In this document: piece by piece, positions 1,500-51,213 of the stretch
Position numbering within the stretch: position 1 is the stretch's first letter
Layout of the letters: every line of letters starts with the position of its first letter
DNA from: a virus
Taxonomy: Duplodnaviria; Caudoviricetes
Virus record (IMG/VR): IMGVR_UViG_3300010327_000802
Span: 9,201-73,200 of that record
DNA length: 64,000 bases
Reading direction: 5' to 3' (one strand)
Notes under the pieces: generated by a model
Seen by the model: only the letters and a program-made list of their open reading frames with translations
The model's database searches: none
What the model was told of the DNA's origin: nothing
Program-made: the position numbers and the translations under genes

Positions 1500-1509
1500 A
1501 AAATCCTCC

Positions 1510-4468: not shown

Positions 4469-4847
4469 GTAAAATATCCTCCTTGTCTGAAACTATCTTT
4501 TTTAATTCAACCTCAAAAAGTTCTCCGCTTGAACCATATTCTAATTGTGGAAACCAAGCTACCTTTTCAACAGTATCTTTATATGCAGATTTAATGGGTC
4601 CCTCCATTGGGACTAAGGGTAAATAGTTCTTTTTATTATCATTAAAGTTTTTCTTATAATCTTCATAATATCTTTGATAATAATTTGACACCTTAATATA
4701 GCTTTTTATACAAGGGTCATTCTCAATACACTCATTTATTTTTTTAGAAAGCTCTTCATTTTTAGAAGCTGTTTTTACAAAACTACTCCATTTCATTTTG
4801 GAAAAGTATTTCTTCCAAACATAAGATAGTAAATCAAAGTTTGTCAT
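4449..4847 (-). CDS. Hypothetical head-module protein
   Basis: AGGAGG SD; contains KTAS. Confidence 0.7.
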   Translation of the reverse strand: MTNFDLLSYVWKKYFSKMKWSSFVKTASKNEELSKKINECIENDPCIKSYIKVSNYYQRYYEDYKKNFNDNKKNYLPLVPMEGPIKSAYKDTVEKVAWFPQLEYGSSGELFEVELKKIVSDKEDILHVRKKY

Positions 4848-4894
4848 ATCTCCTCCTATATATAATTAGACTAATAATTTCTTTTAACATAACC

Positions 4895-6031: not shown

Positions 6032-6033
6032 TT

Positions 6034-7224: not shown

Positions 7225-7421
7225 TAAATCTGCTCCTTTTTCTCTTCAGGTTCCTCCTCCTTTCCTTCATGTTTTAAATTCTTTTTAATTCTCCCTTTTT
7301 TCGTTTCTTTATCTTCCTTTTTTAATGAGGCAATTCTTTTCTGAACCTCAGCATCCTTTTCAGATACAACCTCTAATATTTTTCCTTCTTTTTTTCCAAA
7401 TTTAATTATAGGCATAGTCAC
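7224..7421 (-). CDS. Small K/E-rich hypothetical protein
   Basis: GGGG SD, translationally coupled. Confidence 0.6.
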   Translation of the reverse strand: MTMPIIKFGKKEGKILEVVSEKDAEVQKRIASLKKEDKETKKGRIKKNLKHEGKEEEPEEKKEQI

Positions 7422-7426
7422 ACCCC

Positions 7427-8647: not shown

Positions 8648-8695
8648 TACTTATTACCTCCTTATATTTTATATTTTTCCAAACTTGAAACTATA

Positions 8696-8712
8696 ACTAC
8701 AAAGTTTGTAGT
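8696..8712. promoter_or_regulatory. 8-1-8 palindrome ACTACAAAGTTTGTAGT in the intergenic gap after the portal; candidate operator
   Basis: Palindrome seen directly; on the minus strand it lies immediately upstream of TATAGT, a -10-like hexamer. Confidence 0.35.
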
Positions 8713-8722
8713 CAAAAAATTA

Positions 8723-10522
8723 TTACTTTGCACCATTTTTAGTATTCCCCTCTAATTTTAAATTTCCGTCCTCCCCAACTTTCAAACGGAAGACTACATC
8801 TGCTGGGATAGCTTTCCCCTTTTCTAACCAAGGGACAATGTAAGTATTAACTAATCTTAATTTTTCCATTATATTTTGCCCATCTGCCCATTTGAACTCT
8901 TTTTCTTCTATTATTGGTTCTTTAGTATATTTAGATCCCTGCCTCTCCCCAATAACTACAGGGAGTTTAAAAGTAGCTTCTTTCCCAGTAGGTCCTATTG
9001 GTGGGGGTATCAGAGCTATAGCTTTCCTTCTCCATTCAGAATAAAAAGGATCAAATATAGTTCCCTCTTCCTCTTCTTTCCAATAACGAACCTCATCGTA
9101 ATCAACATTAAGAACATCACTTATTATCTTCATTGGAAATCCTAAATCTCTCATTTGTCCAACCATACCAACTATAGAAGTACTATCAAGCAAGTTAATA
9201 TTTTTTTGCCACTCAAAAGTAGGTAAAATTGGTTTTCTCTCGGAAAATGGTCTTTTTATTAAGAAAGGCCCCCCTAAATCCGAAGTAGTGGTTTCATAAA
9301 ATTCATGTGCAATAGCAATGGGGAGAAAAAACCTTTCTGTTAACACATTTTCTAATAATGATCTCACAAAGGAATACCTCGCCATCAATACTCTCATAGC
9401 TACTGAGGCATTAGCATATGTAGGACCTTCACCATGGGTAACAGCTTTACTAGTAAATAGAGCAGTTAAAACTCTATCTTCAATCCAGTCAAATTCCTGC
9501 TTCAGCGGAGATAAAGCTCCCCCACCCATAACATATTCAGCCCTTACTGTATGATTAGCCACAAGAGTAAATAATGGGTTTTGTTCTGCTGTTTTTACAG
9601 CTTGCTCTAAAGCATCAATTTGGTCTTGTGTAGCGGGCCATGTATCTGACCCAATATGCCACAATTCCTTTGGGTTAATATATCGCTGAGCAATAGCAAA
9701 TTGAGCTTCACGTAGTTTATCTTCATACAATAAATCTTTCATAACACGAAGAACAATCGAAGTACCACGAGTCATATAAGGGCTTTGTTTTCTCTGGAAA
9801 GGCATAATAAAAAATGGAGAAAGCGGAACAGCTTCCCCTTTTCTTAAAGCTTCAATAATAGCTGGGGGGAGTTTCTCGAGAACTGCTTTATCGAGAGGGT
9901 TCATTTCAGGAGAAAAACTTCTCATTGCTACTTGGACTTTGTATTCTACCGCGTCTTGTCCTCCAGCCAACCATCCTTTATCTTCAACTATTAAATCTTC
10001 TGGGGGGATAAGTTGAGCATCAGTAAATATTCCGGATTCATCATCCCAAAAAAGATAAGTAAATGCTTCACCAAGAAGCCAATAGTCTCTTAAAATTGAA
10101 TATAGTAATAGTAACCCCCCACATGCTTCAAATGATTCTTTATAAATATTCTTAATAATTGGATCAGCTACTTTCAAAGAAAACCTTGATAATGGAACAG
10201 TTGTGTGTAAATCTATTGAGTTTCCTACCATAGGATGAAACGCGTCCCAGTGTCTAAGCCAAGTAATAGTTGTTTTCAAGTCTGTGGGCATATAAAAATG
10301 TACCCAAGACAACATTGGAGAAAACCATCTTGGAGGGTAGTATTCAACTGTAGAACCGGCAGCAGTTTTTGCAATTCCACCAGTAGAAGACCCCCAAATG
10401 ATATTATCTTTACTTCCCATCAAAGAAGCCCTCGTAACTCCACGAGGACTACCCAATTTATTATTTATTTTAGAGGATGTTTTCTTAGCTTGATTATTGC
10501 TTTCCGATTTTTGTCCTTTCAT
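8723..10522 (-). CDS. Putative portal protein
   Basis: 599 aa with portal-like pattern (HPMVGNSIDLH, RDYWLLGEAF, PYMTRGTSIVLR, KLREAQ.AIA, L.AL......GEG); position upstream of the protease. Confidence 0.72.
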   Translation of the reverse strand: MKGQKSESNNQAKKTSSKINNKLGSPRGVTRASLMGSKDNIIWGSSTGGIAKTAAGSTVEYYPPRWFSPMLSWVHFYMPTDLKTTITWLRHWDAFHPMVGNSIDLHTTVPLSRFSLKVADPIIKNIYKESFEACGGLLLLYSILRDYWLLGEAFTYLFWDDESGIFTDAQLIPPEDLIVEDKGWLAGGQDAVEYKVQVAMRSFSPEMNPLDKAVLEKLPPAIIEALRKGEAVPLSPFFIMPFQRKQSPYMTRGTSIVLRVMKDLLYEDKLREAQFAIAQRYINPKELWHIGSDTWPATQDQIDALEQAVKTAEQNPLFTLVANHTVRAEYVMGGGALSPLKQEFDWIEDRVLTALFTSKAVTHGEGPTYANASVAMRVLMARYSFVRSLLENVLTERFFLPIAIAHEFYETTTSDLGGPFLIKRPFSERKPILPTFEWQKNINLLDSTSIVGMVGQMRDLGFPMKIISDVLNVDYDEVRYWKEEEEGTIFDPFYSEWRRKAIALIPPPIGPTGKEATFKLPVVIGERQGSKYTKEPIIEEKEFKWADGQNIMEKLRLVNTYIVPWLEKGKAIPADVVFRLKVGEDGNLKLEGNTKNGAK

Positions 10523-10530
10523 AAAACCTC

Positions 10531-11724
10531 CTAGTAAGCCCCTACATAATTTTTCATATAGACATCATCCATAATGTCTTTAACCCCCTTGTAGGAAAAC
10601 TCATATGTTCTTCCTATAGAATCATAAAAAATACCTACAGGGGTGTTTTCTTCTTTCTTCCATGGAATAATAAGCACTTTTTCTATAGAACCATAAGCAT
10701 TCTTAAAAGGAAACTTTACTCGTGCCATTACATATACTATGTCGTTTCCCTCTTGTAAAATATTGGCATACCTTAAATCAGCCCCCAATTTAAACAAATA
10801 AAAAGTAACTGTATCTAAAATACTTCCATATTTATTCCCAACTTTATAACTAGCATTTATTCTAGAAACATCAACAATAGTATTATCGTATTGAGGTTTC
10901 TTAGATCTATTTCTTATAAAATCATCAATTAGTTGAGTTAAATTCCTAAATGCAGGTAAATCCATTCTTTCTATTGCACTAATAAGCTCTTTTTCATAGG
11001 TTGTAAGTTGTACCCGTTCAAGAGGATCTAAAAAGAATCTTTCTTTTGGTAAACCAAAGGCTTCCTGGGGGAAGTTTGCTTCCTCCCTATTCCCTCCAGC
11101 TTGTTCAGTTGCTTGATCTCCTGCTTCGCCTCCACCAAAACCTCTTTCTCCTAAACCACCTCCGCCTCCTAATCCAAGATTACTTAATGCAACTTCATTA
11201 ATTTCTTGTGATTCTTTACTAATAGAAGAAATATGAAAATAAAATTTATTAACCCCAATATCGGATATAGCAGTTACCAAATCATCTACTATATCCTTAT
11301 TTAAAGTACTTGCTATTTTTATCACCCTTTCCGCATAAGTTTGCGGGGGTTCTTCCTTCTTTGGATAAAGCTTATACTTATCAATAAAATTAATGATATC
11401 CATATTACTCTCCTTTTTTGAAGCAACAAAGGGGTTTAAAAGCCTTCTTACTATCCTCCATTCAGGGTTAGTATGCCTCTTACCCCTATCGCTCCAGTCT
11501 GGTTGTAATGTTGGTCGTGTTGAAGGCATTTGCATATTCATATGGTCTAATAAACGTTGAACATACTCCGAACTTCTTGAGTAAGGAGTTTTTGTTATCC
11601 ATTGAATAGGATCCATACCTCTTTTAACTGGAACATTACGTTTTTTCTTTAAATTTAGACGCTCAATCAGCTTTTCATAAGGAAATTCCATATTACTCAT
11701 TAGAGGTTTCCTTTTTTTCTCCAA
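10531..11724 (-). CDS. Hypothetical head-module protein with Gly-rich linker (start may be 11700)
   Basis: Long ORF adjacent to the portal; KIAS motif. Confidence 0.7.
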   Translation of the reverse strand: MEKKRKPLMSNMEFPYEKLIERLNLKKKRNVPVKRGMDPIQWITKTPYSRSSEYVQRLLDHMNMQMPSTRPTLQPDWSDRGKRHTNPEWRIVRRLLNPFVASKKESNMDIINFIDKYKLYPKKEEPPQTYAERVIKIASTLNKDIVDDLVTAISDIGVNKFYFHISSISKESQEINEVALSNLGLGGGGGLGERGFGGGEAGDQATEQAGGNREEANFPQEAFGLPKERFFLDPLERVQLTTYEKELISAIERMDLPAFRNLTQLIDDFIRNRSKKPQYDNTIVDVSRINASYKVGNKYGSILDTVTFYLFKLGADLRYANILQEGNDIVYVMARVKFPFKNAYGSIEKVLIIPWKKEENTPVGIFYDSIGRTYEFSYKGVKDIMDDVYMKNYVGAY

Positions 11725-12184
11725 CAGCTAAACGTAAATTAGTAGGCAGTTCATATGTTCTTGCTCCATCTTCCCACTCTACTAAACAAAGAGGAATTCT
11801 TCTCCTTCCGCTATATTCAATTAGACGAACAACTCCTTTTCTCTTACCAAGGTACACTTTGCTAATAACTACATCTCCAACAACAGGAATAAAGTCAAAC
11901 CTAAAAAATGTAGGATCTTCAGAAAACATTTCATCAAGTTGTTCAAAGACATCTATCTCTTTATTTTTATTTCTATTTACAAAGTCCTCTAATAAACCGT
12001 TCATTTTTAGAAAATTAGATAAACTATCTTCCCCAAAAATATGGATATACTCTGAGTAACCCCCTTCTTTTTTTATTTCAATTAGATAAGGATACACATT
12101 AGTCATAAAAATAACGACATCACAAACAAAAGGAGAGTTGGAAAGTTTTACTCCTTTCTTTTCGTAAATTTTTTCTTTTATCAT
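11693..12184 (-). CDS. Hypothetical protein with C-terminal SH3/KOW-like beta-barrel
   Basis: VVGDVV.....KRKGVV......CLVEWEDG pattern; GGAGG SD. Confidence 0.6.
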   Translation of the reverse strand: MIKEKIYEKKGVKLSNSPFVCDVVIFMTNVYPYLIEIKKEGGYSEYIHIFGEDSLSNFLKMNGLLEDFVNRNKNKEIDVFEQLDEMFSEDPTFFRFDFIPVVGDVVISKVYLGKRKGVVRLIEYSGRRRIPLCLVEWEDGARTYELPTNLRLAVGEKKETSNE

Positions 12185-12187
12185 AAA

Positions 12188-13111
12188 CTAACCTCCTTTA
12201 ATCACTTCTTTTAACAATTGGGATATAACCTTAGGGTCTATTGAGGATTGTTTGCGTATATTGTTTAATATGGATAAAGCATTCTCCCCAGATAATTTAA
12301 GAAAAGTAGCTATATCACTTACTGGAATATTACCTTTCTCAAGCAGCTTAGTAACTATTAATTGAGCTACATAAGGATCAGTTAATACTTCTTTAAGAAT
12401 ATTTACCATATCAATAGACAAAGTATTTTCATTCTCTTTCATTTGATATCCTTCTTGCCCCATGAAAGCTTTCTCTTGTTCTGATATAGGTCTAAAACTC
12501 ATAGGTCTTAAAACTTCCAGCTCTGTACCAAGAATACTATCATCTGCAATTTCTGGGTAAGGCTTAGAGTCCCATTTTACAATATACATTTTAGAGGATC
12601 GAGCAATATCTATAACAACACCACGTTCTTTATTGTTTTTATTATAAACAAAATCCCCTATTGCAAATCTAGGAAATGGCTTTAATTCCTCTGTTTCAAT
12701 CTCAGTACCTTTAGAAGGAACAACCATTTGTGGAGAAAGTTGAGTTGGAATGGGTGGGATATCTGCCTCTTTAACTTTAGAAGCTCTACTTATCGGATTA
12801 AAAGAATTGTTTAATTCACCAAATTTAAACTTAGCTGGAACATACTTAGTATCTTCCCCCTCCAATGTTTCTACAATAGAAGCCTTAGAAATGAGATGTT
12901 CTGTAGGGCTATCTAATATTGGAGTTTCTTCCTCATCGAAAAGATCTACTAAATTATCTATATCTTTATTTTCTTCTTTCTCTAAAGAGGCAATTTTTTC
13001 AAAAATATCTAATTTAGGATAAAATTCTGCCTCTTTTTCATCATATAAACTTTCAAAAGCCTCCTGAAGAAGCTTCCAGTCTCGAAGTTCTTCTTCTTTC
13101 CTATTCGGCAT
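12188..13111 (-). CDS. Hypothetical protein with central SH3-like domain
   Basis: FAIGDFV.....ERGVV......YIVKWD pattern; KIAS near the N-terminus. Confidence 0.65.
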   Translation of the reverse strand: MPNRKEEELRDWKLLQEAFESLYDEKEAEFYPKLDIFEKIASLEKEENKDIDNLVDLFDEEETPILDSPTEHLISKASIVETLEGEDTKYVPAKFKFGELNNSFNPISRASKVKEADIPPIPTQLSPQMVVPSKGTEIETEELKPFPRFAIGDFVYNKNNKERGVVIDIARSSKMYIVKWDSKPYPEIADDSILGTELEVLRPMSFRPISEQEKAFMGQEGYQMKENENTLSIDMVNILKEVLTDPYVAQLIVTKLLEKGNIPVSDIATFLKLSGENALSILNNIRKQSSIDPKVISQLLKEVIKGG

Positions 13112-13113
13112 AT

Positions 13114-13680
13114 TTAAAACCCTCCTTCCTTATATAGTCCTGGGGTTATATTTTTTGCAGTCTTAAACTCCCAAGACGGTCTAGTTGGAATTTTTAATAG
13201 TCCACTTTGGAATTTCTTTAGCGTTTCTAAACTTCTTTTTAAAATTTCTTCATAAAACTCAAATAAAACTATGTCAGTTTGTTCTCCTATTCCCTTTATA
13301 TTTAAGCTAATTGGGATGTCTTCTTTCTCACTTTCTTCAACTTGTCGTGCTAAATCTGGGAAATTAATAGGTCTTTCCTTTTTTTCCTTCTCTAGGTGGT
13401 CTAGTCTCATATAGATTACCTTAATGGATTCTGCTACCCACTCTTCGAAAGTGGACTCTGTATTCCATCTTTCTTCAGAAAAGGCTTTTTTCTCCTGTAG
13501 GTTAACCGCCTCTAGAAAATTTTGGTAAGACATGTATATAAAGTCCTCTTCAGACCATTGTCTCACCTTTTCTGCTAGATAAACTCTCCAATTCTCATAA
13601 CCTTCCCTCTCTGCTATTTTTGTTAAATAATTAATTACTTCACTTTCTTCAAAAATCTTGCCTTCTATATTTATTTGCAT
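13114..13680 (-). CDS. Hypothetical protein
   Basis: ORF with GGGGGAG SD. Confidence 0.7.
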   Translation of the reverse strand: MQINIEGKIFEESEVINYLTKIAEREGYENWRVYLAEKVRQWSEEDFIYMSYQNFLEAVNLQEKKAFSEERWNTESTFEEWVAESIKVIYMRLDHLEKEKKERPINFPDLARQVEESEKEDIPISLNIKGIGEQTDIVLFEFYEEILKRSLETLKKFQSGLLKIPTRPSWEFKTAKNITPGLYKEGGF

Positions 13681-13690
13681 ATTCTCCCCC

Positions 13691-13990
13691 TTAGCCTGTT
13701 ATACTTTTTACAGCCAAAGTAAGATCTTTAAAATCATTTATAAGATCTACCCCAAATACTTGTGAGGTCCATATATGTTCCATAAACCATTTAAGGATAG
13801 TATCTAATTCTTCAGGGGGAATCCTCTTTGGATCAAGGGATTCCTCTAAAGAAATCTTACCATATTCCTGAGCTTTATCTAAAATATATTCCCAAGGAAT
13901 ATAGTCTAATGAATACTCTAAAATTTTTTCTGAACCAAAATATAAGTTCCAAACATTTTCACTAAAAACAGCTTTAAACATTACTAACAC
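13691..13990 (-). CDS. Hypothetical protein
   Basis: AGGAGG SD, in operon. Confidence 0.65.
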   Translation of the reverse strand: MLVMFKAVFSENVWNLYFGSEKILEYSLDYIPWEYILDKAQEYGKISLEESLDPKRIPPEELDTILKWFMEHIWTSQVFGVDLINDFKDLTLAVKSITG

Positions 13991-14384
13991 CTCCTAATTT
14001 TTCAGTAATAAAAGGTACTACAGAATAAACTTTATTTTCAATCTTAAACGTATAATGAGGAAAATTAAGTTTCTTATTGATAGTTACATAGCCCCCATTA
14101 TACATTCGCCTAAAAACCTCCTTTTCAGTTTTAGGCACCTTACCAAATATAATATTTATTATTTTATTAGATATTTCATCTATTTCTGTTAAAGTAAAAT
14201 TGATAGTGTCCCAGCACATTACCCCTTCAAATAGGGGAAAGTCTATACCCCCATTTATATTCCACCTTGCAACTTCGGTTGGTATAACAGCATATTTTCT
14301 ATTAAATTTATCAAAAATATTCACTAATAAACATTCATCAAAAATTTTATTTTTATCTGAAAATAAAATTATGTTTATATTCAT
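13974..14384 (-). CDS. Hypothetical protein
   Basis: ORF in operon. Confidence 0.6.
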   Translation of the reverse strand: MNINIILFSDKNKIFDECLLVNIFDKFNRKYAVIPTEVARWNINGGIDFPLFEGVMCWDTINFTLTEIDEISNKIINIIFGKVPKTEKEVFRRMYNGGYVTINKKLNFPHYTFKIENKVYSVVPFITEKLGGVSNV

Positions 14385-14427
14385 ATCTATTAGGGGGGAG
14401 ACTATGATATCTCCCCCCTAACAATGT

Positions 14428-15111
14428 TCACTCTTTACCATCAAACGTAGAAACGTCCTTCGTCTGAGGTGTTTCTTCCTTATTACCCAACTCTTCTCTA
14501 ATATAATTTATCTCCGCTGCGGAGAAAAACTCACTTGGGTTCATAGCTACTTTTTCTAGGAAAGCTTCAAACGGAAATATTCTAGACATCAATAATAAAT
14601 TTCTATTAATTCCTTCTGGACAGGACATCATTAGATATTGTGATACTTCATACCAAAACTCTTCTGTTTTCGTTTTAGCAAGCAGCCTTTCTTTTAATTC
14701 TTCCTCTGTTAATTTAGACTCTTCTAACGAGTCCTCTTGGTATTCTCTAACAATTCTATCCACAAAACGGCTTGCAATAGTTTCAACTGCTTCTTCTATA
14801 GCCTCTCCAAAAAATCCCTCTAGCTCTTGAATCCACATATTGAGATCTGAGGAGGGTTCATACCCAAAGAAAGGCTCCCTTTCTCTGTTAGAAATAGCAT
14901 AACATAAATCGTATGCCCTTTCTACAAGAAATAGATTATACTTATAGTATAGAAAAAGCTCTAATTCAGTATTTCTTTCTATTAGATTAACTAATTCATC
15001 ATAAGAAAGCGAAGAAGTTTTCGAGGTCCCTAAGGCTGAAAGCTTTTCTATAACACGTTCCAATTTATTCTGTATTTTAATAAATCTATTAGGTAGTCTC
15101 TTATTTCTCAT
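14428..15111 (-). CDS. Hypothetical helical protein
   Basis: ORF in operon, overlaps the upstream stop. Confidence 0.7.
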   Translation of the reverse strand: MRNKRLPNRFIKIQNKLERVIEKLSALGTSKTSSLSYDELVNLIERNTELELFLYYKYNLFLVERAYDLCYAISNREREPFFGYEPSSDLNMWIQELEGFFGEAIEEAVETIASRFVDRIVREYQEDSLEESKLTEEELKERLLAKTKTEEFWYEVSQYLMMSCPEGINRNLLLMSRIFPFEAFLEKVAMNPSEFFSAAEINYIREELGNKEETPQTKDVSTFDGKE

Positions 15112-16726
15112 CTTTTTTCTCCCGATAAGGAGATTTCCTTCTATTTCTATTTCTGTTAAATAGCTCTTTACGTATGTCCTTACGCTCTTTCCCTATTAAA
15201 TCGTTTTCCTTCCCATTTTCTTCGTCCTCTTCCTCTTCCTTTTCCTTTTCTCCCTCGTCTTCTTCCTCTTCCTTTTCCTTTTCTCCCTCGTCCTCTTCTT
15301 CATCCTCTTCCTTTTCTTCCTCGTCTTCTTCCTTCTCTTCCTCGTATTCCTTTTCTACCTCGTCCTCTTCTTCCTTTTCCTTTTCTTCCTCGTCTTCTTC
15401 TTTCTCTTCCTCTTCCTCGTCTTCTGTGTCTATAAATACCTCAATTTCCCCAATACTGTCGGTTTCATCTTCCGTCTCTTCCTCTTCTTTCTTAATACGA
15501 GAAAAATCAATACGCTTATCCTCAACAGACTTTGTTATAATATCTGTAATAGTATCAAGTGTTTCCTCTATTGCCGAAGCCATCTCTTCAAATTTTGATA
15601 AAAAGTCCTCTATAATCTTCTGCATACTTGTATCAAGTACAGCCTCTCTTCTTTGTAGGGACGCATAGGCAGGAGCGGTAAGTCTCCTTTCATACCTTTC
15701 TTCTACTTCCTCTTCTTCCTCTTCCTCAAATTCTACCCCTTTAATTTCAGCATACTCTAATATCTCTATATTATAATCATCTATAAGATCTTTCCATATT
15801 TCAAAATAAACATCCAAAGCTCTAATTACATAGTTTATATACCTCCCGAATACCAACAAATCTCTCAAATAAGGTGAAGCATATTTTGAAAAATGTTTAT
15901 AGGAACTAAGCTTTCTAACTTCGACATAATTTAAAACACTCTTTGCTATATCTGCGAGACAATCGATTAATCTTTCTACCTCTTTTGAGGAAGAAGAACT
16001 AATTATAGATCCAGTCTCAAACCCAATTAACACTTCCTTACAATTTTCAATAATCTCCCTACCAATCTTACCCTTCCCTAAAGCTACTTCCTCTAGGGCT
16101 TCTCTAATTAAGGCTCTAAACTTACGTGCCTGCCTAGAGTTTCCGGCGGAAGAAGCTAACTTCTCAGCAATAGCGTAAACTATATTATAAATACCAGACT
16201 TAGGTATTCCCCCACCATAACTATATACAGATACTTGTAGTTTTCTTTTATCCCCTTTGGGATGGATAACATAAATCTTGTCATCAATTAGTTCAACCTC
16301 TTCAGCCAAATTGTAAAGACTATTTATAGCTTTATCAAGTTCTATTTTTACCTTTTTAGTCAAAGCTTCCATTTCCTCTTTTGTTTCTCTAGCTTCGGGG
16401 TTTGTCGCATAAAACTTTTCGGTAAGTTTTTCCATACGATTGGTTAAATCTGCAATCCTTTTTTGTATTTCATCCTTTTCTTTAATAAAATTATATATAG
16501 CATTAAAGTACTCTTTCGCCTCACCCTCAACTGTGATTTCTTTTATAGTTTCTCCAAGAGGAACAACTGGCTTAGTTAAACGGGGTCTTTCCTCTGTTCT
16601 ATCCAGAAATTCCTTTTTACTTTCAGGAGATACAATTTTTTTCTTGATATCATCAACATCGGCTATTTTGCGGATTATCCTATCCGCATTCTTTTTTTCT
16701 CTCAGAAAGTCTTCAAATCTACTCAT
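15101..16726 (-). CDS. Coiled-coil protein with a very long E/D-rich tract and basic C-terminus
   Basis: GGAGG SD; about 90-aa acidic tract followed by RNRNRRKS. Confidence 0.8.
   Translation of the reverse strand: MSRFEDFLREKKNADRIIRKIADVDDIKKKIVSPESKKEFLDRTEERPRLTKPVVPLGETIKEITVEGEAKEYFNAIYNFIKEKDEIQKRIADLTNRMEKLTEKFYATNPEARETKEEMEALTKKVKIELDKAINSLYNLAEEVELIDDKIYVIHPKGDKRKLQVSVYSYGGGIPKSGIYNIVYAIAEKLASSAGNSRQARKFRALIREALEEVALGKGKIGREIIENCKEVLIGFETGSIISSSSSKEVERLIDCLADIAKSVLNYVEVRKLSSYKHFSKYASPYLRDLLVFGRYINYVIRALDVYFEIWKDLIDDYNIEILEYAEIKGVEFEEEEEEEVEERYERRLTAPAYASLQRREAVLDTSMQKIIEDFLSKFEEMASAIEETLDTITDIITKSVEDKRIDFSRIKKEEEETEDETDSIGEIEVFIDTEDEEEEEKEEDEEEKEKEEEDEVEKEYEEEKEEDEEEKEEDEEEDEGEKEKEEEEDEGEKEKEEEEDEENGKENDLIGKERKDIRKELFNRNRNRRKSPYREKKDEK
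15215..15490. repeat. Low-complexity (TCT/TCC)n tract encoding the poly-E/D/K region, including a 2x33-bp tandem repeat at 15228-15293
   Basis: Seen directly in the sequence. Confidence 0.9.
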
Positions 16727-16728
16727 TT

Positions 16729-18015
16729 TTACACCTCCCTAGTGCCATACTTTCTACGTTTTATATATGCACACATTTTCTTAGCCCGTTCAAGAGACAA
16801 GTTCTTTTCACTCATAAAATATCTAACACACCCACAGAACTTGGACTTTTTTTCTGGAGCATCTGGACAAGTCATTTCTTTAAATGACCCCTTTTCTGTT
16901 TGATACTTTTTGTTCTTTGGTTTAGCGGCTGTTTTTTCTAAATCAGCAAAATTTGTTAAAATATCAGCTGCTTTTGAAAATGAATTAGTTGCATTAATAA
17001 AATAATCATATACCTTGTTAGAAAGGTCTTCTATAAGATTTTTGTAATAATTAACCTTAGTAGAAGCAATTTTTGTAGAACCTATACTTTGATCTTCCAA
17101 GATAGAAGATGCAAGGTCAACTAAATCAAGCACTAGAAGTAGACCCTCTCTACCTACAGAAGAAGCTGCTTTTGATAAGAAATCAGCTGCTTTTTCTATA
17201 GAATAAATTCTCTCTTCATATTCCCCTAATCCTTCTGATTCCTCTACCTCTTCTGCTTCATACAAATCTCCGTACATTTCTCCCAACTCCTCTATTCTTT
17301 TAATAAAAGAAAAGTATCTTTCTTTCGCAACTTCTCTAGCCTCTTCGTATTCATCCTCTGTATAAAAATCAATTATTTCTAGACCAGAAAAATCACAAAA
17401 GGCTACAATATTACCACGCATTCCTTTAATTTTCTTTATTTCTTCATCCGTAAATCCGAAATCTTCATCTTTAGCAAGATAAACTATTTCATCATCAATT
17501 ATTATATACTTAACTGGATGTAAATCATCTGAAATAGAGTAGAGGTCTTCATAACACTCTGAGCTTTCATCTTCTTCAGCACACAAATCTTCTATCCTTC
17601 TCCATTCGGAATCAGAAATAAATTCTAAATAGATGTCGGACTCTTCCTCAGGTTCAATATTTTCAGTTTCTAATATAACTTCAAGGAAATCTTCAAACTT
17701 TGTTTTAAATCCGAGTTTTACTCTAGAAAGTGAACTAAGCTTTTTAGAGTCTATTTTATACCCCCTTCTTTTAAGCTCTCTTATTAACGGAGCCCTATTT
17801 ACTTCACTAACTTTCTTTTCCTTGAAAAATCTATCTAGCTTTTCCGTAATATTAGACCCCTTTTTAGGATTCTTAGCCCACTTAATAAAATTATCAGCAT
17901 GGGTTGAGGGAGATACTTCTCCACTCTCTTTTTCTTTCTTAGCCACTTCGCCAGTTTTACCACCTTGCTTTAATAGATTTTCAAGGTGGGAAAATAATGC
18001 TTCGATATTACCCAT
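16729..18015 (-). CDS. Acidic modular head-module protein with C-terminal C-x18-C hairpin
   Basis: AGGAGG SD; KAAS, KIAS and KTAA motifs. Confidence 0.75.
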   Translation of the reverse strand: MGNIEALFSHLENLLKQGGKTGEVAKKEKESGEVSPSTHADNFIKWAKNPKKGSNITEKLDRFFKEKKVSEVNRAPLIRELKRRGYKIDSKKLSSLSRVKLGFKTKFEDFLEVILETENIEPEEESDIYLEFISDSEWRRIEDLCAEEDESSECYEDLYSISDDLHPVKYIIIDDEIVYLAKDEDFGFTDEEIKKIKGMRGNIVAFCDFSGLEIIDFYTEDEYEEAREVAKERYFSFIKRIEELGEMYGDLYEAEEVEESEGLGEYEERIYSIEKAADFLSKAASSVGREGLLLVLDLVDLASSILEDQSIGSTKIASTKVNYYKNLIEDLSNKVYDYFINATNSFSKAADILTNFADLEKTAAKPKNKKYQTEKGSFKEMTCPDAPEKKSKFCGCVRYFMSEKNLSLERAKKMCAYIKRRKYGTREV

Positions 18016-18017
18016 AG

Positions 18018-18395
18018 TTACCTTTCCTCCTTTAATACATCTAACTTAAACCTATTTTTTTCACAAATTTTTTCAAACTCCTCCTTATAATACTTCCCCA
18101 TTAATTCTAACACAGAGAATATTATTCTCCATTCACTGAGATTAGAATCTCTTAAGAGTTTAAATATAAACTCTAACTCTTCTAGAGTAAAATTTTCTTT
18201 ATCCTCTAATATCTTCTTTGTTAGCGGATAAAGAATTGCAATTTCCATAGAAGTGGGAGTATGTTTATCCAATAAAGAAACTATTACATCTTTTACAGTA
18301 ATAACAATTTCCTTTTCTTTATTTTCTTCATCTTTGGCTAAAACTACTAATACTCTGCCAAGTAAATCTCTTACTGGTTCTTTTAAAAATGACAT
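18018..18395 (-). CDS. Hypothetical protein
   Basis: AAGGAGG SD. Confidence 0.7.
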   Translation of the reverse strand: MSFLKEPVRDLLGRVLVVLAKDEENKEKEIVITVKDVIVSLLDKHTPTSMEIAILYPLTKKILEDKENFTLEELEFIFKLLRDSNLSEWRIIFSVLELMGKYYKEEFEKICEKNRFKLDVLKEER

Positions 18396-18548
18396 ATAAG
18401 CCTCCTTTTTTGGCTAAATATTTAGTGAACTACGAAATATGATTCATCCAAAAATTTAATTTATTTCTTAGAAACCCTCTATTAACCTTCTTTACAAAGA
18501 AATATATTTAGAATTTTCAACATAAGAGGGTTATAATAAACAATATAT

Positions 18549-18836
18549 TTATTTTTCCACCCCCAATAAATGAATATCTATATCAATATCACCACTGTAA
18601 GATTCAACAACTACTTTTACAGATTTAGCATAAGGAAAAGCATAATCACTAGAATCAAAAATAGCATCCTCTTCTAATAAAACTATATAGGAATAGATAT
18701 TATAGTTTTTATAAAATACCTCTCCGTCTGGAGAAAAAAGAAACGTAACGTCTACACTAACATTAGACTTATTTTTCACATAAACAGAATACCTTGAGTA
18801 TTTTTCAACTTCAAATACCTTCTCTATTTTTGCCAC
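18549..18836 (-). CDS. Small beta-rich protein, probable paralogue of 28368..28736
   Basis: GGAGG SD and GTG start; V..Y....VY.K......V....SP pattern. Confidence 0.6.
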   Translation of the reverse strand: MAKIEKVFEVEKYSRYSVYVKNKSNVSVDVTFLFSPDGEVFYKNYNIYSYIVLLEEDAIFDSSDYAFPYAKSVKVVVESYSGDIDIDIHLLGVEK

Positions 18837-18837
18837 A

Positions 18838-19059
18838 TTAACCTCCCCAAACCTTCTTCCAATTGCTTTGGTATTTTACATACAATTCTTTTACCTTAGT
18901 CCAAGTACCATTAGACTTCATATATATATCTTTTAAATTAGTCCAAAGATTTTCTACCTTTACATAAACTCGCTTAACAGCACTTACAACCTTGCCTAAC
19001 CCTACAAAATAGCTATCACTTGAACAATTCCTTTTTAAAAAACCTATAAAATAGCTCAT
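18838..19059 (-). CDS. Small tail-fibre-associated protein
   Basis: Repeated VYVK...W pattern (VYVKVENLW, IYMKSNGTW, LYVKYQSNW) typical of fibre-associated modules. Confidence 0.5.
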   Translation of the reverse strand: MSYFIGFLKRNCSSDSYFVGLGKVVSAVKRVYVKVENLWTNLKDIYMKSNGTWTKVKELYVKYQSNWKKVWGG

Positions 19060-19469
19060 GTCAAAATTATCTCTCGAATATAAGCAGGAACTAATTCAGA
19101 ATAGTGAGGACGATTAAAGCTACCTATAAATAAGCCACTATAGCTTACAGAAAAGTTAATTGTTATCTGTTGTTCAACCATATTCCTTATTTCGGGTAAA
19201 GTTTCAACAAAGATATGTTCTCTTGTAGAAAAGTCTGAAAGAATAAAACAAAATTTACTTGAAACACTTCTAGCCATAAAGGAAAGAGTATAAGAACCAG
19301 CGGGCAAATCAAGTACAAATTCATAACTACCTCCAACTATAATATAACTAACTGAATCAATAGTAATAGTAGTATCGGCAGCACGGGTATATAAACTATT
19401 AAAAATTGTTGCCAACATATCTCCAAAGTCAGTAATAGGTGGGAAAAGAAATCCGTCATAGTCAGCCAT
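19056..19469 (-). CDS. Beta-rich virion-like protein (track start 19529; likely start MADYDG at 19469)
   Basis: ATG 19469 directly follows the upstream stop at 19472. Confidence 0.55.
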   Translation of the reverse strand: MADYDGFLFPPITDFGDMLATIFNSLYTRAADTTITIDSVSYIIVGGSYEFVLDLPAGSYTLSFMARSVSSKFCFILSDFSTREHIFVETLPEIRNMVEQQITINFSVSYSGLFIGSFNRPHYSELVPAYIREIILT

Positions 19470-19471
19470 AT

Positions 19472-20305
19472 CTAGTCCAACCTCACAAAACAACCATATC
19501 CACCACCAACACCAACGTAATGTTTCCAAGCAACTCCATTTATATAAACAGTATCCCCTGGAGATAAACCTAGAGAATTACTATAATTTCCAGTAGCCAT
19601 AACTCCGTCCAATTGACCATGAACAAAATAAGGTGAATTTTGCTCTTGAACTATAGTCTCTAATATCATTATAGTACCCGCCGTAGTTTTGCAACCAACA
19701 TATAAGTCATAGGTGCCACCAACCTTTCCCCAACCATACATTTTTATACTAATGCTGCCTGTGTTGCTAACTAAGGATTTAAAAATTGGAGAACTAACGT
19801 TATTACTACTACCAAGAAAACCCAATGGATTTGAGGTGTAGGAAGAACTCTCACTATGTCCTATAAATAAAACATCTTTTAGTGAAGTATTAAATCTCTT
19901 CGGGTACCCTATATAATTCCCAAAACTCAAAGTTGTATTCATAAAAATGAATCTTTGATGATTAACGAGAAGTATATAGCCCTCTCCTTGATCTGTTGTT
20001 GTGTGCTTAACTATAACAGGCTTATTGGAAGAGTATCCAGTTAACATGGTACGCCCTGTATATGTTTTATTAGTAATATCCCAACCCTCAGCTATACCAA
20101 TAACAGAATAATTATTATAATTATCATCAACACTAAAAATAAAATCTATATCAGAGTTGGGATCAAGGTGCCCATATACTTTCTTATTTGTCCCCGCTTC
20201 TGGATCTACAGAAACCCAATAAGCAGATTGGTCTAACAAATTTTCATCCAAAATAGGTAATAAAGTTCCTACTCCCAGCTGTATTACTCCAGTATATAAA
20301 GCCAT
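19472..20305 (-). CDS. G/S/T/N-rich putative virion structural or fibre protein (likely start MALYTG at 20305)
   Basis: AGGAGG SD before ATG 20305; beta-strand-rich composition. Confidence 0.55.
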   Translation of the reverse strand: MALYTGVIQLGVGTLLPILDENLLDQSAYWVSVDPEAGTNKKVYGHLDPNSDIDFIFSVDDNYNNYSVIGIAEGWDITNKTYTGRTMLTGYSSNKPVIVKHTTTDQGEGYILLVNHQRFIFMNTTLSFGNYIGYPKRFNTSLKDVLFIGHSESSSYTSNPLGFLGSSNNVSSPIFKSLVSNTGSISIKMYGWGKVGGTYDLYVGCKTTAGTIMILETIVQEQNSPYFVHGQLDGVMATGNYSNSLGLSPGDTVYINGVAWKHYVGVGGGYGCFVRLD

Positions 20306-20313
20306 ATTTCCTC

Positions 20314-21858
20314 CTAAATTACAAAACAAATATCTCCATCTTCTCCAACATCAGAAGATGGAACCTCTGGTAATATATAAATTCTATAGCCAAAGGTTAA
20401 ACCATTTTCCCCCTCACTTACCAAAACGGATCTGTTTGATTTACCAGTATAACTGTTTGGTGTATCTTTAATATTCAAAAAGCTATCTAACTTACTCGCT
20501 TTCAATTTATTATTATATACTATTATAGTATCCGCATCAATTTTATTTCCAAGGTAATCTGCTATATCATTCGCATCTATTTTCACTTTACCATCGGAAA
20601 CACCACCTGTTGTTGGAAGTGGGTATGCCCCATAAACTCCATCTTCATTTGTACCTAGATAATAATTTTTACCAAGTACGCAAGTCAAATCACGATAAGA
20701 ATGCACATGTGGTGGAACTGTAGACAAATCTGGTTTATTGATAATAATATCCCAATCTACACTTTTTACATATATTTTATGTGTAGTAGTATTAACCCCA
20801 AGAGTAATATTGTCTATTTTGTCGGTAAGAAACCCTACTACAGTATCCTGTGTATCAGCATAGACTTTACCATAATTTTTTACAAAAACTTTATGAAGAG
20901 TAGTATTAACCCCAAGGGTAACATTATCTACTTTATCTATTATAAAACCACGAATAGGATCTAAACTATCTGCATAAACTTTGCCATCTGAAATATTATT
21001 AGAAACAAAATTTAGTTGAACAAAGTAGAGTATACCGTCTCCAGGCAACTCATCATAAAATTGAAGACTTCCTTCATCTATAGGTGAATAATCAAACTCT
21101 TCAACAAGAATCTGGTTGTTAAGACTAATTAAAATAATCTTAGATGCAACTAAACCTTCAGGTAAAGTTAATATCCCATTTTGGATATTTAAGGTATTTA
21201 CTACATAATAAGCTTTGTATAGTGGTTCTTCTTCGTTATAAGGAGTAGGGCTGGTTTCTAAAATATTAAACCCACCACCACTGCTACTAAGGTATTCAGA
21301 ACAAAAGATAGCATTCAAATCCAATTCAAGCTGATTCCAAATAACAGATAAAGTAGGACCTAAACAACTAGCAATAATCGATTTGAATAAAGAAGAACCC
21401 AGCACCGCCCTCAAACTTATAAGCGTGCTTATAACCTGACGTGTCATACTCCCTTCTACATCTCTTAGAGGATCTATATCTGCACCTTCTTGGTAAACAA
21501 ATTCCCAATCTTGAAATGGATAGTGCTCTTTATAAAGATCATAAATTGAATCCAAATCATCAATTAGTGGTTGTAAAACTTCATTATACTTTGCTAAATC
21601 CTCTTCATTTTCTCCATAACTAATTAAATGTAATATATTTAAAAGTAATTTTAATCTAAAAGCATACTCTCTAGAAAAAACAATCCTAAAAATCCTTTCA
21701 TATAAAGTCTGTTCAGAATCACCTAATAGAAAGTTAACAATGCTGTCTTCCCCCTCATCAACTTCTCCCTCTATAAGTGAAAGTGGGGTAAATAGTTGAG
21801 ATATAATTGTTTCAACAACATCTTGTGGGTTAGATAAGTGAATTGGGCAGTCAAACAT
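20314..21858 (-). CDS. Putative tail-fibre or virion protein with DGKV..D..D...G.L..K.D repeats
   Basis: Two 38-aa tandem repeats plus a third partial; C-terminal G.DGD motif. Confidence 0.55.
   Translation of the reverse strand: MFDCPIHLSNPQDVVETIISQLFTPLSLIEGEVDEGEDSIVNFLLGDSEQTLYERIFRIVFSREYAFRLKLLLNILHLISYGENEEDLAKYNEVLQPLIDDLDSIYDLYKEHYPFQDWEFVYQEGADIDPLRDVEGSMTRQVISTLISLRAVLGSSLFKSIIASCLGPTLSVIWNQLELDLNAIFCSEYLSSSGGGFNILETSPTPYNEEEPLYKAYYVVNTLNIQNGILTLPEGLVASKIILISLNNQILVEEFDYSPIDEGSLQFYDELPGDGILYFVQLNFVSNNISDGKVYADSLDPIRGFIIDKVDNVTLGVNTTLHKVFVKNYGKVYADTQDTVVGFLTDKIDNITLGVNTTTHKIYVKSVDWDIIINKPDLSTVPPHVHSYRDLTCVLGKNYYLGTNEDGVYGAYPLPTTGGVSDGKVKIDANDIADYLGNKIDADTIIVYNNKLKASKLDSFLNIKDTPNSYTGKSNRSVLVSEGENGLTFGYRIYILPEVPSSDVGEDGDICFVI
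20760..20987. repeat. Two degenerate 114-bp tandem repeats within the fibre gene
   Basis: GTAGTATTAACCCCAAG at 20786 and 20900. Confidence 0.8.
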
Positions 21859-21868
21859 ATTTTATTAC

Positions 21869-23233
21869 TTATTCCTCAAAAACAGTCAAATATCTTTTGG
21901 ATGAAATATAGCCCAACTCAAAAAGATCATGAATATAGTCAAAGACTTTTAGCCCAATATCTATACGATAATACCCATTTGGGATTATAATATCCTCAAT
22001 ATTTTCGTATGCCTTATCTATAGATCCCTGCAAAGTTTGATCCATTCCAACCGCCACAAAAACCCTAGAGTGAGTAGGAACAGAACGAATATACCCCTTG
22101 TCGTCTTTATATATTCCAGCCGGTATATGTTTATACAGATAATCAGGGTTTTTAACTCGAATAATAACATTATCCCCAGAAGTAGGGGAAGATAAGTTAT
22201 CTACATTTGCACAAACTCCTGTCAGCCAATCAGGTGAAATATCTATCCGTTTCATTATTCCTTTAGTTACATCATAAAATATCTTTCCAAGCGGTGTTTT
22301 TATTGCTGGTAACATTATAGATATATGTGGATACCCAAATCTTGATGTATGCTCTAAATAATAAGGTTTTCCATCTTTATAAGAAACAATGGCGTTTATA
22401 TCCACATAGCCAATTCCATAATTCTCCTTATACCACTTTTCATATTTACCAAACATAATTTCAAAAAGATTGTCCACATCACTATTATCCTTATTAAAAA
22501 TAACTGTTCCCATTTCACCAGTCATTTTACCAAGCTCTCCAGGAAATAACCGTTTATGCTCAAAATTCATATTCCAAGGCATAACAAAGCCATCAGGTCC
22601 TACAAAAACTCCCATTGCTACTTCAATACCATCCACATAATCTGTTACAAGAATTTCAGTAGAATCATCAATCCCCTTTTCTTTCAGGTTTTCTAAATGA
22701 ATAACCGCATCTTCATTATCAACAGAAACATAAGTTTTTATACTTGAATCCCCAATTTTATTTAGCTTGATAACAGGTCGATTGAACTCTTCTTCCTCTA
22801 TATCCTTTATAGCTTCAATAATTGGTGAAGCATATTTTGAAAGATGTTTATTTGAATAGACTTTAGATTTTGGGAAATATTCATATATGCCTGCTTCCTT
22901 TGCATACCCTCTATCATTTTCAAGCCTTGTGCCTTTTTCAGATGCTCCCCAAACTAACTTGCCTTCCTCTCTTAACTTATCTGCAGCTTCCCCCCAGAAA
23001 ACATCTGTGAAAATAATTACATCTACGTCATCAACATATTTTTCATAGTTTTCAACAAATTTAACTCCAGCCTCCTCAAGAAATCCCTTTCCGTAAAGAA
23101 TATCAGATTGCTCCGGGGTGCTTCTTTGCCAAGAAACGTAATAATAAACTTTTTCTCCCTCTTCCGCCAATCTATAGGCTATAGATTCAGCTAATCCAGT
23201 GTCAACTATTAGGTATTTCATTTGTGGGTACAC
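21869..23233 (-). CDS. purD: PurD-like (GAR synthetase family) ATP-grasp ligase with divergent N-terminal substrate loop
   Basis: RLENDR, PVIK, GIEVA, EHKRLF.GELG.MTGEMG, LEHTSRFGYP and C-terminal AY...E.I....YYRIDIG. Confidence 0.8.
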   Translation of the reverse strand: MYPQMKYLIVDTGLAESIAYRLAEEGEKVYYYVSWQRSTPEQSDILYGKGFLEEAGVKFVENYEKYVDDVDVIIFTDVFWGEAADKLREEGKLVWGASEKGTRLENDRGYAKEAGIYEYFPKSKVYSNKHLSKYASPIIEAIKDIEEEEFNRPVIKLNKIGDSSIKTYVSVDNEDAVIHLENLKEKGIDDSTEILVTDYVDGIEVAMGVFVGPDGFVMPWNMNFEHKRLFPGELGKMTGEMGTVIFNKDNSDVDNLFEIMFGKYEKWYKENYGIGYVDINAIVSYKDGKPYYLEHTSRFGYPHISIMLPAIKTPLGKIFYDVTKGIMKRIDISPDWLTGVCANVDNLSSPTSGDNVIIRVKNPDYLYKHIPAGIYKDDKGYIRSVPTHSRVFVAVGMDQTLQGSIDKAYENIEDIIIPNGYYRIDIGLKVFDYIHDLFELGYISSKRYLTVFEE

Positions 23234-23528: not shown

Positions 23529-25421
23529 CTATTTTTCTAAATCTGCCATTCTACCCGAAAACCTTACTCGACCACCCTTCCCCGCTCCACTAAAGGGATT
23601 ATAAACTCTAGCAACTGGAGCAGGACTACGTGATGGTTGAGGGGGGGATAACATGGCTAAAGGTGAAACTTGTGATACTGTCATGTAAACTGGTCTAGCA
23701 ACAAAAAAGTTAGGAGAATTTTGTGAAAAGTATGCATGTTCATCAGATTCTTTAGAAAGTTTAAATACTTTTCCAAACCAAGAGATAGCACTAACTACGG
23801 CATCAGTAATATCTTGATAACCTACAATTACTCTCGGTTTAGAGTTTCCTCTAGGAACAGCTAAAGCCCTTACCTGTTCGAGAAACTCATAAGACTCAAG
23901 CTGATTGGGAAGTCTTATACTAGAAGGTGCAGTATAAAATAAATTTTTCATTAAGTAATAATCATCTAGAACTACTGGTTTATCATCCCATTCATGCGAG
24001 ATATTTTTCCACCCAGCCGTATTCCACTTATCTGATCTGATTTTTGTTATTCTTAACATTCTTGAGATTTTAACAACAATCTCAAAGAAATTATACACAT
24101 CAATTGTTGTTCCCGTTTCTTTATCCGTTCTCCAAACCATAAGCGTATCTACTACAAAAGTAGGTTGGTTGTTTAATATTTCTCCGTGAGCAACACAAAG
24201 AGCAGCCATACAATCAACTTCGCCAGCGTCAACTCCCATAAAATATTCTACTGGTTTAGGAGGATAATTTAGTTTTAAAGAAAGAGGATTATACCTATAC
24301 TTATACCCTCCAGTCGTAGTACGAACCCTCTCTGGTTCGGCAGATAATAATGAAGGTCTTTCTGAATCGATAAATAAATCTACAGGAGTTCTATCTAAAA
24401 TATCAAACCATTTAGCCCCAGATACTGATAAAGGTAAAGCTATGTATTTTGAAACACTAGAAGCATAATCTCTACTAAAAGAAGAAGCAAGTTCAATTGG
24501 AACATCATACTCCTTATTAAACTCTCTTACATATAGTTTAAAGGTTTCTTTCGATTCAAATCTACTAGCTGGGGCTACTTCCCAAGTAGGATAGTGTGAA
24601 GTAATTGCATTAGGTATCTTACCCTCATTTATCTTTTTATATAGATTATAAGTAAAATCAACATCTGAAGTTAATCTTGGATATGAGGTTACTATCCCAA
24701 GATAGGGCAGTTCTCTTGTAGAACTAGTCAAAGTTTCAAAGATTTTATTAGCATTTGGCTGCCCCGAAGCCGAAATATGACCTGAAGCTTCATCCATAAC
24801 CCAACCAATTAGTGTGAGTCCTTCAAAAGATTCATTTCTCGAAGGTACGGACATAAATTCTAAATTAATCGCATCAAACCGTATAGTTTCAGTAGTCATT
24901 CTTATCTTAGGTAATCTTGTATCAGCTACGTCTTCATTTATAATCTTATTTCCACTCTCAATAGGAAAACTACCAAAAAAAGTAGACCTGCTTATACGGG
25001 CTTTTACTCTATCAAATATTTTCTTCGACATATTCTGGTTGGTAGAAACAACTACAATTGATAATGGATCCGAAGGAGATAAGCCAAAGAAACTACTAGG
25101 GTTGGGTTTTAAAAAATGTAACAAATAAATAATATAAGTCATTAGTGCTGTGCTTACAGTTCCTTTTCCACTTCCTTTCCCCCATAAAAGGACAACAAGG
25201 TTAGGATGATTTCCTTTCTTAAAAAACTTTTCAGCACTACCTTCCCAACCAGCTTTACCTAAAGCCCTTTTACACTCTTTTTCTTGGTTAGGAGTAAACT
25301 TTACTTCTTTAATATCTTTATACAAAAAAGATAGAAAATCCCAGGGCTCTGTGTGTGGTAAGCTTATTGAGTGTCGTTCCTCGTAGCTTTCAAAAACTAC
25401 CCTCCAATCTAAATCAGCCAT
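23529..25421 (-). CDS. terL: Terminase large subunit
   Basis: Walker A (WGKGSGKG), Walker B (WVMDEA), nuclease motif (FMGVDAG) and C-terminal DITDA. Confidence 0.88.
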   Translation of the reverse strand: MADLDWRVVFESYEERHSISLPHTEPWDFLSFLYKDIKEVKFTPNQEKECKRALGKAGWEGSAEKFFKKGNHPNLVVLLWGKGSGKGTVSTALMTYIIYLLHFLKPNPSSFFGLSPSDPLSIVVVSTNQNMSKKIFDRVKARISRSTFFGSFPIESGNKIINEDVADTRLPKIRMTTETIRFDAINLEFMSVPSRNESFEGLTLIGWVMDEASGHISASGQPNANKIFETLTSSTRELPYLGIVTSYPRLTSDVDFTYNLYKKINEGKIPNAITSHYPTWEVAPASRFESKETFKLYVREFNKEYDVPIELASSFSRDYASSVSKYIALPLSVSGAKWFDILDRTPVDLFIDSERPSLLSAEPERVRTTTGGYKYRYNPLSLKLNYPPKPVEYFMGVDAGEVDCMAALCVAHGEILNNQPTFVVDTLMVWRTDKETGTTIDVYNFFEIVVKISRMLRITKIRSDKWNTAGWKNISHEWDDKPVVLDDYYLMKNLFYTAPSSIRLPNQLESYEFLEQVRALAVPRGNSKPRVIVGYQDITDAVVSAISWFGKVFKLSKESDEHAYFSQNSPNFFVARPVYMTVSQVSPLAMLSPPQPSRSPAPVARVYNPFSGAGKGGRVRFSGRMADLEK

Positions 25422-51067: not shown

Positions 51068-51111
51068 CCCTGTTTTTTTAAATATATTTTCACTATTCCA
51101 ACTTTACTATT

Positions 51112-51213
51112 TTTACTATACGATTATACTTTACCAACTTTACTATACGATTATACTTTACCAACTTTACTATACGATTATACTTTACCAACTTTACTAT
51201 ACGATTATACTTT
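51112..51213. repeat. 27-bp direct tandem repeat (TTTACTATACGATTATACTTTACCAAC) x about 3.8, iteron-like
   Basis: Exact copies at 51112, 51139 and 51166, partial at 51193. Confidence 0.95.

Follow-up and report, generated by a model that had tools for sequence, protein, structure and literature searches.

A 28-nt sequence is found twice in a 64,000-nt stretch of DNA from a virus of the Caudoviricetes (bases 9201-73200 of the 73.2-kb virus record IMGVR_UViG_3300010327_000802; this whole stretch is referred to below as the window), within two unrelated genes on the minus strand. One encodes P0001, an acidic protein of the phage head block, and the other P0002, an ATP-grasp ligase resembling PurD, in which the sequence forms an insertion. 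The features concerned are as follows.

15101..16726, minus strand: P0001, an acidic protein of 541 aa lacking homologues (an ORFan), in the head block
15873..15900, minus strand: copy 1 of the repeat, spanning codons 277-285 of P0001, KHFSKYASP (15872-15898); presumed donor
21869..23233, minus strand: P0002, a PurD-like ATP-grasp ligase with the fold of glycinamide ribonucleotide (GAR) synthetase, 454 aa from a GTG start
22824..22851, minus strand: copy 2 of the repeat, KHLSKYASP, residues 129-137 of P0002

Compared on the plus strand, the copies are identical at 27 of 28 positions, the single difference being A/G at position 20; both the coordinates and the identity agree with those in a preliminary description of this DNA, which had also placed the first copy in an acidic head-module protein and pointed out the K-x-A-S motif, here K-Y-A-S, within the repeat. 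The two copies are read in the same frame, giving SSY-KHFSKYASP-YLRD in P0001 and YSN-KHLSKYASP-IIEAI in P0002. Third positions match in all eight comparable codons, which makes convergence at the level of the protein unlikely. An exhaustive comparison of all 28-mers of the window, on both strands and with at most one mismatch allowed, recovered 133 pairs. Three tandem arrays (at 15.2, 47.6 and 51.1 kb) account for 132 of them; the copies at 15873 and 22824 are the one pair, in either orientation, to be separated by more than 500 nt. The array at 15.2 kb is that of the acidic tail of P0001, whilst the others consist of three 36-nt units at 47594-47701 and four 27-nt units at 51101-51235.

The preliminary description had allowed that similar 28-mers might be common by chance, but no match with three or fewer mismatches arose in 100 dinucleotide-preserving shuffles. 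Across the whole 73.2-kb record the 28-mer occurs only twice, and a search of the record for further degenerate copies of the peptide found none, the third-best score being 27 against a mean shuffle maximum of 26. The repeat is not a chance match, and it is unique in the record. A search of IMG/VR with the exact 28-mer returned no further copies, three public collections held none apart from those of the same virus, and a degenerate pattern at the peptide level, run against metagenome and genome collections, recovered the same virus plus four unrelated chance matches with different codons.

Both copies, with the same T/C difference, are also present in eight other contigs, which were assembled independently (ENA, NCBI, JGI and Logan), match the window at 99.1-100% identity and include one labelled as a biogas fermenter metagenome; hence the repeat is not an assembly artefact. 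It is confined to a single virus species, and no close strain free of the cassette was found among these eight contigs. The next relatives of the ligase, at 58%, 50% and about 40% identity, do not have the insertion. Given that the cassette has accumulated only one or two differences in 27 nt, the event is far younger than the split from those relatives and older than the radiation of the strains. The recent copying proposed in the preliminary description is thus borne out at the DNA level, and is specific to this lineage in the ligase.

Copying of this kind could in principle have been retained for a role of the DNA or RNA itself, such as the binding of a regulator, a recombination site or the target of a small RNA, with the coding function secondary. 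The copies have the same orientation and identical synonymous positions, and in the ligase gene native codons downstream pair with the end of the cassette in a 6-bp hairpin (z -2.1). However, the 28-mer alone is unfolded (0 kcal/mol) and lacks dyad symmetry, the donor site is unstructured (z +0.8), and nothing on the coding strand resembles a promoter or a terminator. Recent copying is a simple explanation of the synonymous identity. The sequence is present only twice in 73 kb and otherwise, in three public collections, only in the same virus, and it does not resemble the strain-variable IS605/TnpB elements of this virus. We consider such a role very unlikely. The search for RNA structures, promoters or terminators common to both sites found none shared. 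The inverted repeat behind the hairpin, GCTTCA-N8-TGAAGC at 22812-22831, combines the 3' end of the cassette with native Glu-Ala codons, and is probably a chance occurrence.

In P0002 the inserted block can be delimited more precisely than the repeat. A codon alignment with the two closest relatives (L007 and L008) places it at 22823-22849, as 27 nt in frame, or nine codons, encoding residues 129-137. The identity of 28 nt in the preliminary description stands, with one or two of those bases belonging to the flank, but the block itself is 27 nt long. The description had predicted an insertion of roughly nine residues between 'VYSN' and 'IIEAI' and named alignment with homologues that share the residues without an indel as the way in which this might fail. 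No such homologue was seen: the nine residues stand opposite a gap in 13 of 13 homologues (58-32% identity), and the segment between the flanking anchors is three residues long in 119 of 120 family members aligned with MAFFT and 12 residues long in P0002 only. An AlphaFold model of P0002 (predicted local distance difference test, pLDDT, 85.7) places residues 131-136 in a loop leading from a strand (123-126) to a helix (137-146). All residues that are invariant in the family are retained. From the alignments, the ligase looks intact, and the loop seems never otherwise to have been lengthened in the family. The possibilities of an attL/attR pair or of a deletion-prone repeat were ruled out, since to either side of the cassette the ligase remains collinear with its homologues.

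The 14 best Foldseek matches of the P0002 model in the PDB are all GAR synthetases (E 1.9e-27 to 2.5e-22), and the model has the four-domain PurD fold. The likeness to PurD (PDB 2YW2, 1GSO and 2IP4) extends over the full length (Foldseek E 1e-24 to 1e-27; template modelling, TM, score 0.67-0.78), although sequence identity is 17-20% and P0002 differs in lying beside the terminase gene and in its unique nine-residue loop insertion. Amongst Pfam families, GARS_A exceeds its gathering score (34.2 bits against a cut-off of 27, residues 140-302), GARS_C falls below it (29.4 bits against 34.8), and GARS_N, another point of difference from PurD, has no match at E <= 0.01. Database versions of the protein begin at the ATG at 23221 and have 450 aa. 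No purine genes were recognised among the neighbours of P0002, and nothing relevant on ATP-grasp or PurD proteins in head modules was found in the literature.

The only K-x-A-S sequence of P0002 is that inside the insertion, and its closest PurD-like orthologues have none. Many cellular PurD-like relatives (P0027, P0028, P0036, P0049-P0051 and others) have a native Q-K-[FY]-A-S-G-V-E sequence about 50 residues past the insertion point; its likeness to K-Y-A-S is coincidental, with no tie to the cassette at the DNA level.

P0001 has a helical N-terminal part and a strongly acidic C-terminal tail rich in Glu, Asp and Lys. It has three sites of the K-x-[A/S]-S type, K-L-A-S (189), K-L-S-S (272) and K-Y-A-S (281), and the cassette segment lies between two predicted helical stretches, five residues past K-L-S-S. 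A word-indexed search, a full HMMER search against 1.84 billion representatives and a search of IMG/VR returned only P0001 itself, an IMG/VR scan with its neighbour of 428 aa likewise returned only the protein itself, and the ESM Atlas model of P0001 is poor (pLDDT 0.35). As there are no homologues, whether the copy in P0001 is native cannot be established by alignment; the direction of copying, with P0001 as the donor, is inferred.

This leaves room for another source, in which the nine codons were native to the ligase and were then copied into P0001, or in which both genes received them from a third donor, either the host or a part of the genome that has yet to be sampled, as CheckV estimates the 73.2-kb record to be 37% complete. 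Such an origin appears improbable. The degenerate peptide scan described above retrieved no candidate donor beyond this virus, its four unrelated matches using different codons, and the segment in P0001 follows closely on a K-x-S-S site in a block of genes where such sites are the norm.

The presumed donor and the insertion are 6951 nt apart and identical at 26 of 27 positions. The flanks of the insertion share at most 3 nt with those of the donor, and comparison of the flanks showed no target-site duplication at the insertion. With two copies and no flanking duplication, the cassette lacks the terminal repeats, target-site duplication and multiple copies of a mobile element; matches with the IS605/TnpB elements are of 11 nt or less, at the level of chance, and a link with them was rejected. 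What is seen resembles a templated filler-DNA insertion: a short copy from the same genome with an identifiable donor, no target-site duplication and 1-3 nt of microhomology at the junctions. Such insertions are usually seen as mutations without meaning, whereas this one contains, in frame, a motif that looks functional, and every sampled strain has the insertion. The copy may have been made either through end joining with filler DNA or through a template switch.

The significance of the motif derives from the head genes of this phage and of its relatives, which include the following.

294..18015, minus strand: head block of 18 genes, with 16 K-x-A-S against 2.0 expected and 15 K-x-S-S against 3.7 expected
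4895..6031, minus strand: head maturation protease, 378 aa (phrog_18299, E 7.2e-17), with a fold like that of assemblin and T4 gp21
8723..10522, minus strand: portal protein, 599 aa (phrog_16240, E 1.9e-41)
7846-8850 of the record, upstream of the window: capsid-protein candidate of this phage
L023:13833-14840, L024:14795-15760 and L025:13862-14815: capsid-protein candidates of relatives

Expected motif counts were calculated from the composition of each individual protein. With 16 occurrences against 2.02 expected (p 5e-10), K-x-A-S ranks first of all 8000 patterns of the form a.bc in the head block. In the remaining 17,935 aa there are four, one of which is the ligase cassette, against about 4.4 expected (by part, zero, one and three against 0.72, 0.54 and 3.16), and neither K-x-A-S nor K-x-S-S is outstanding there. 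The pattern is also seen in relatives: at four loci around homologues of the head protease (L022-L025; 43-51% identical), K-x-A-S is again first of the 8000 patterns, with 25 occurrences against 7.3 expected (p 2e-7). The codons used at these sites vary, indicating that the motif is a signal at the protein level.

The motif also has conserved positions. In the four capsid-protein candidates, which are 47-55% identical, K-x-A-[S/T/A] lines up in a single column (residues 35-42), just after a non-conserved N-terminus. The candidate of this phage has K-K-A-T, from which it appears that the motif tolerates Thr or Ala at its last position. The protease shows the same arrangement: [KR]-x-A-S (KFAS, 32-35) ends the poorly conserved N-terminus in most of 20 homologues, and takes the form K-Y-A-S in three. 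The first 42 residues of its model are disordered, whilst the core, 43-240, has pLDDT above 90. There is no Pfam match for the protease, and no relatives of it or of the portal protein were found in IMG/VR. DH (93-94) and TDTSMG (Ser154) are invariant in the 20 homologues, as is a zinc ribbon, CxxC...CxH (C164, C167, C178 and H180), inserted in the assemblin-like core. Past this ribbon comes a conserved K-T-A-S-G, and the C-terminal part is long and disordered, then helical.

Enrichment in head proteins, combined with N-terminal positions in the capsid protein and protease, is the usual signature of a maturation cleavage site. Herpesvirus assemblins cut (V/L/I)-x-A-S between Ala and Ser, making the Ala-Ser bond the natural guess for the predicted cut here. 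The head maturation protease most likely recognises K-x-A-S, or in wider terms K-x-A-[S/T/A] and also K-x-S-S, and would cut between Ala and Ser. It could alternatively be supposed that the motif is recognised by the PurD-like ligase itself, either instead of or as well as by the protease, the cassette being a pseudo-substrate or a loop for self-modification. ATP-grasp enzymes of other systems act on peptide side chains by ligation or cross-linking, the motif includes both Lys and Ser, and in this virus group the PurD-like gene is conserved in its place beside the terminase gene, with no other purine-synthesis genes nearby. Nevertheless, the cassette is the sole tie between the ligase and the motif, and the placing of the motif at the ends of the non-conserved N-termini of capsid protein and protease is classically that of maturation cleavage; we give this alternative hardly any weight.

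The best structural matches of the protease model in the PDB are herpesvirus assemblins (pUL26N, and those of HCMV, the human cytomegalovirus, and of KSHV, the Kaposi's sarcoma-associated herpesvirus; PDB 4V07, 2PBK and 2WPO), together with T4 gp21, with probabilities of 0.98-1.0, although TM scores are only 0.2-0.5 (0.2-0.4 over the whole model for the assemblins) and the assemblins match only in part, at no more than 9-18% identity. The presumed scissile pair is Ala-Ser in both cases and the conserved catalytic candidates of the phage enzyme are His94 and Ser154, but P3 is Lys here where the assemblins have an aliphatic residue. Another system in which a single short motif is found on many head proteins, several times per propeptide, and in which the protease also cuts itself, is that of phages SPN3US and phiKZ, where a short A/S/G-x-E motif defines cleavage of many head proteins by gp245 and gp175 respectively (PMC10052503). 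The present motif differs from theirs in being K-x-A-[S/T/A] or K-x-S-S rather than x-E and the protease in having a zinc-ribbon insert. If K-x-A-S is indeed such a site, the combination of K-x-A-S cut between Ala and Ser with a protease of assemblin fold would represent a new specificity in phage head maturation.

Taking these observations together, we favour, at a probability of roughly one half, the explanation that a linker containing a protease site was copied into the ligase and retained because it makes the ligase a substrate of the protease. Illegitimate (non-homologous) recombination would have given the ligase gene a copy of a 27-nt, nine-codon piece of the P0001 gene, which lies at a distance of 7 kb on the same genome; the piece is probably a flexible linker between two helices and has the latter of two K-x-[A/S]-S sites in tandem. 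The copy would have landed in frame, and in the frame of the donor, in the surface loop bounded by the strand and the helix with which the ATP-grasp part opens, giving the ligase its only K-x-A-S site. The copy would then have been kept since the site is used, with the ligase a substrate or ligand of the protease; the predicted cut, between A135 and S136, would separate the N-terminal domain (1-135) from the ATP-grasp body (136-454), either inside the prohead or late in infection. The direction of copying, the motif as a cleavage site and the use of the copy in the ligase are all inferred. A bolder version, which we hold only tentatively and regard as somewhat doubtful, is that the linker is a portable module acting as substrate or address, through which the ligase may have been recruited among the proteins that are bound, cut and possibly carried into the capsid.

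Retention by selection is favoured on account of two observations. The first is the rarity of the coincidence otherwise required: 58-64% of random 27-nt stretches of the genome inserted in frame stay open, and amongst these only 0.21% would contain K-x-A-S if the donor could lie anywhere in the contig, 0.56% if in the head block and 0.60% if in P0001. As only one dispersed repeat is present in the window, multiple testing does not arise in that respect, and the motif was recognised independently of the cassette. The second is that the loop does not vary in length among 119 relatives.

The competing explanation to be taken most seriously is that the cassette is neutral filler, a 27-nt fragment of the virus's own DNA caught at a break or a template switch, tolerated and spread by drift or hitch-hiking, with K-x-A-S a coincidence. 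The points in its favour are these: there is one event in one near-clonal virus species; the insertion is hydrophilic and in frame, lies in a loop and leaves all invariant residues in place; a linker peptide is the type of segment that an enzyme loop would best tolerate; microhomology of at most 3 nt without target-site duplication is as expected of end-joining filler DNA; and as K-x-A-S is not avoided in non-head proteins, the site may be harmless. The 0.2-0.6% frequency with which a random donor would supply the top head motif in the right frame argues against it, as does the uniform loop length in 119 of 120 family members, which implies that insertions there are normally selected against. 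We regard neutral filler as a real possibility, though not our preferred explanation.

Several points likewise weigh against the use of the site in the ligase. This is a single event, and the argument from the motif amounts to one coincidence with p of about 0.002-0.006. All carriers are near-clonal, at 99.1% identity or more, so that conservation of the cassette is uninformative about selection. The ORFan status of P0001, discussed above, prevents its copy from being shown to be native. K-x-A-S is not depleted in non-head proteins (three seen against 3.2 expected), suggesting that the protease acts only inside the prohead, in which case a site in an unpackaged enzyme would be without effect. 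Further K-x-[AS]-S sites are absent from the genes next to that of the ligase (18018-23233), hence the ligase is not surrounded by evident substrates. Of the three K-x-A-S sequences in the protease, two have the look of structural elements and not of sites for cleavage. In both proteins the cassette is internal (277-285 of 541 and 129-137 of 454), whilst known targeting tags and most propeptides are N-terminal, and cleavage or packaging of the ligase is a prediction. Of the preliminary description's idea that a processing or packaging tag had been copied into an enzyme, therefore, there survive a real and recent copy, a motif that ranks first in the head block and has conserved N-terminal positions, and a low probability of its supply by a random donor; recruitment of the ligase to the capsid, its cleavage and its regulation are hypothetical.

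The closest precedent for a packaging tag is the capsid targeting sequence (CTS) of the T4 proteins IPII and IPIII, a peptide of about ten residues that is portable to foreign proteins (Mullaney & Black 1996, as described in PMC9958956). There too a peptide of about ten residues is common to unrelated head proteins and coupled to a site that the prohead protease cuts. However, the CTS is N-terminal, is removed after targeting and was moved by experimenters, whereas the cassette is internal in both proteins and its natural transfer is visible in the DNA, with targeting only a supposition. As regards the consequences of an internal cut, cleavage at the I site of HCMV assemblin can leave the fragments associated and active (PMC8537868).

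The ligase gene is separated by a gene of about 105 aa (23202-23519) from that of the terminase.

23529..25421, minus strand: terminase large subunit (Pfam MJ0330_N)

This three-gene module is conserved in relatives amongst uncultured viruses (L007, L008 and L011-L015), three of which (L007, L011 and L012) have a second, diverged PurD-like paralogue. The window also encodes a transfer-messenger RNA (tmRNA; 29243-29588, minus strand) with the tag peptide DNYNYAYTA, as predicted by ARAGORN; a phage-encoded tmRNA suggests a bacterial host. The contigs of some relatives have been binned with archaea. Between the head block and the ligase, some strains have IS605-type TnpB elements (OrfB_IS605 and Cas12f1-like_TNB; L001:11227-12672 and L016:3339-4568), for which the window has the empty allele (18549-18836). 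The insertion points, between 18711 and 18720 and at 18597/18598, lie in the region of a 95-aa open reading frame, and a third TnpB is found at the left end of L001, where the sequence of the window differs. The polymorphism of these insertions suggests that the elements transposed recently.

Point mutation is the usual explanation for the origin of short linear motifs, among them degrons, targeting tags and cleavage sites. In this virus one has apparently moved ready-made, as a 27-nt block between unrelated genes with the donor still recognisable, which makes it a rare case; prohead-protease motifs and templated insertions are each known, and what is new is their combination as the transplant of a motif. 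Should the cassette prove neutral, it would be a clear instance of a templated insertion that has reached fixation in a phage population, and of modest interest. If the linker is a portable module, it would give a direct view of how phages gain new processed or packaged cargo. If the ligase is cut or packaged, the cassette would parallel, in nature, the capsid-targeting tag engineered from T4, and its transfer would represent a simple route by which large phages may enlarge their set of processed head proteins.

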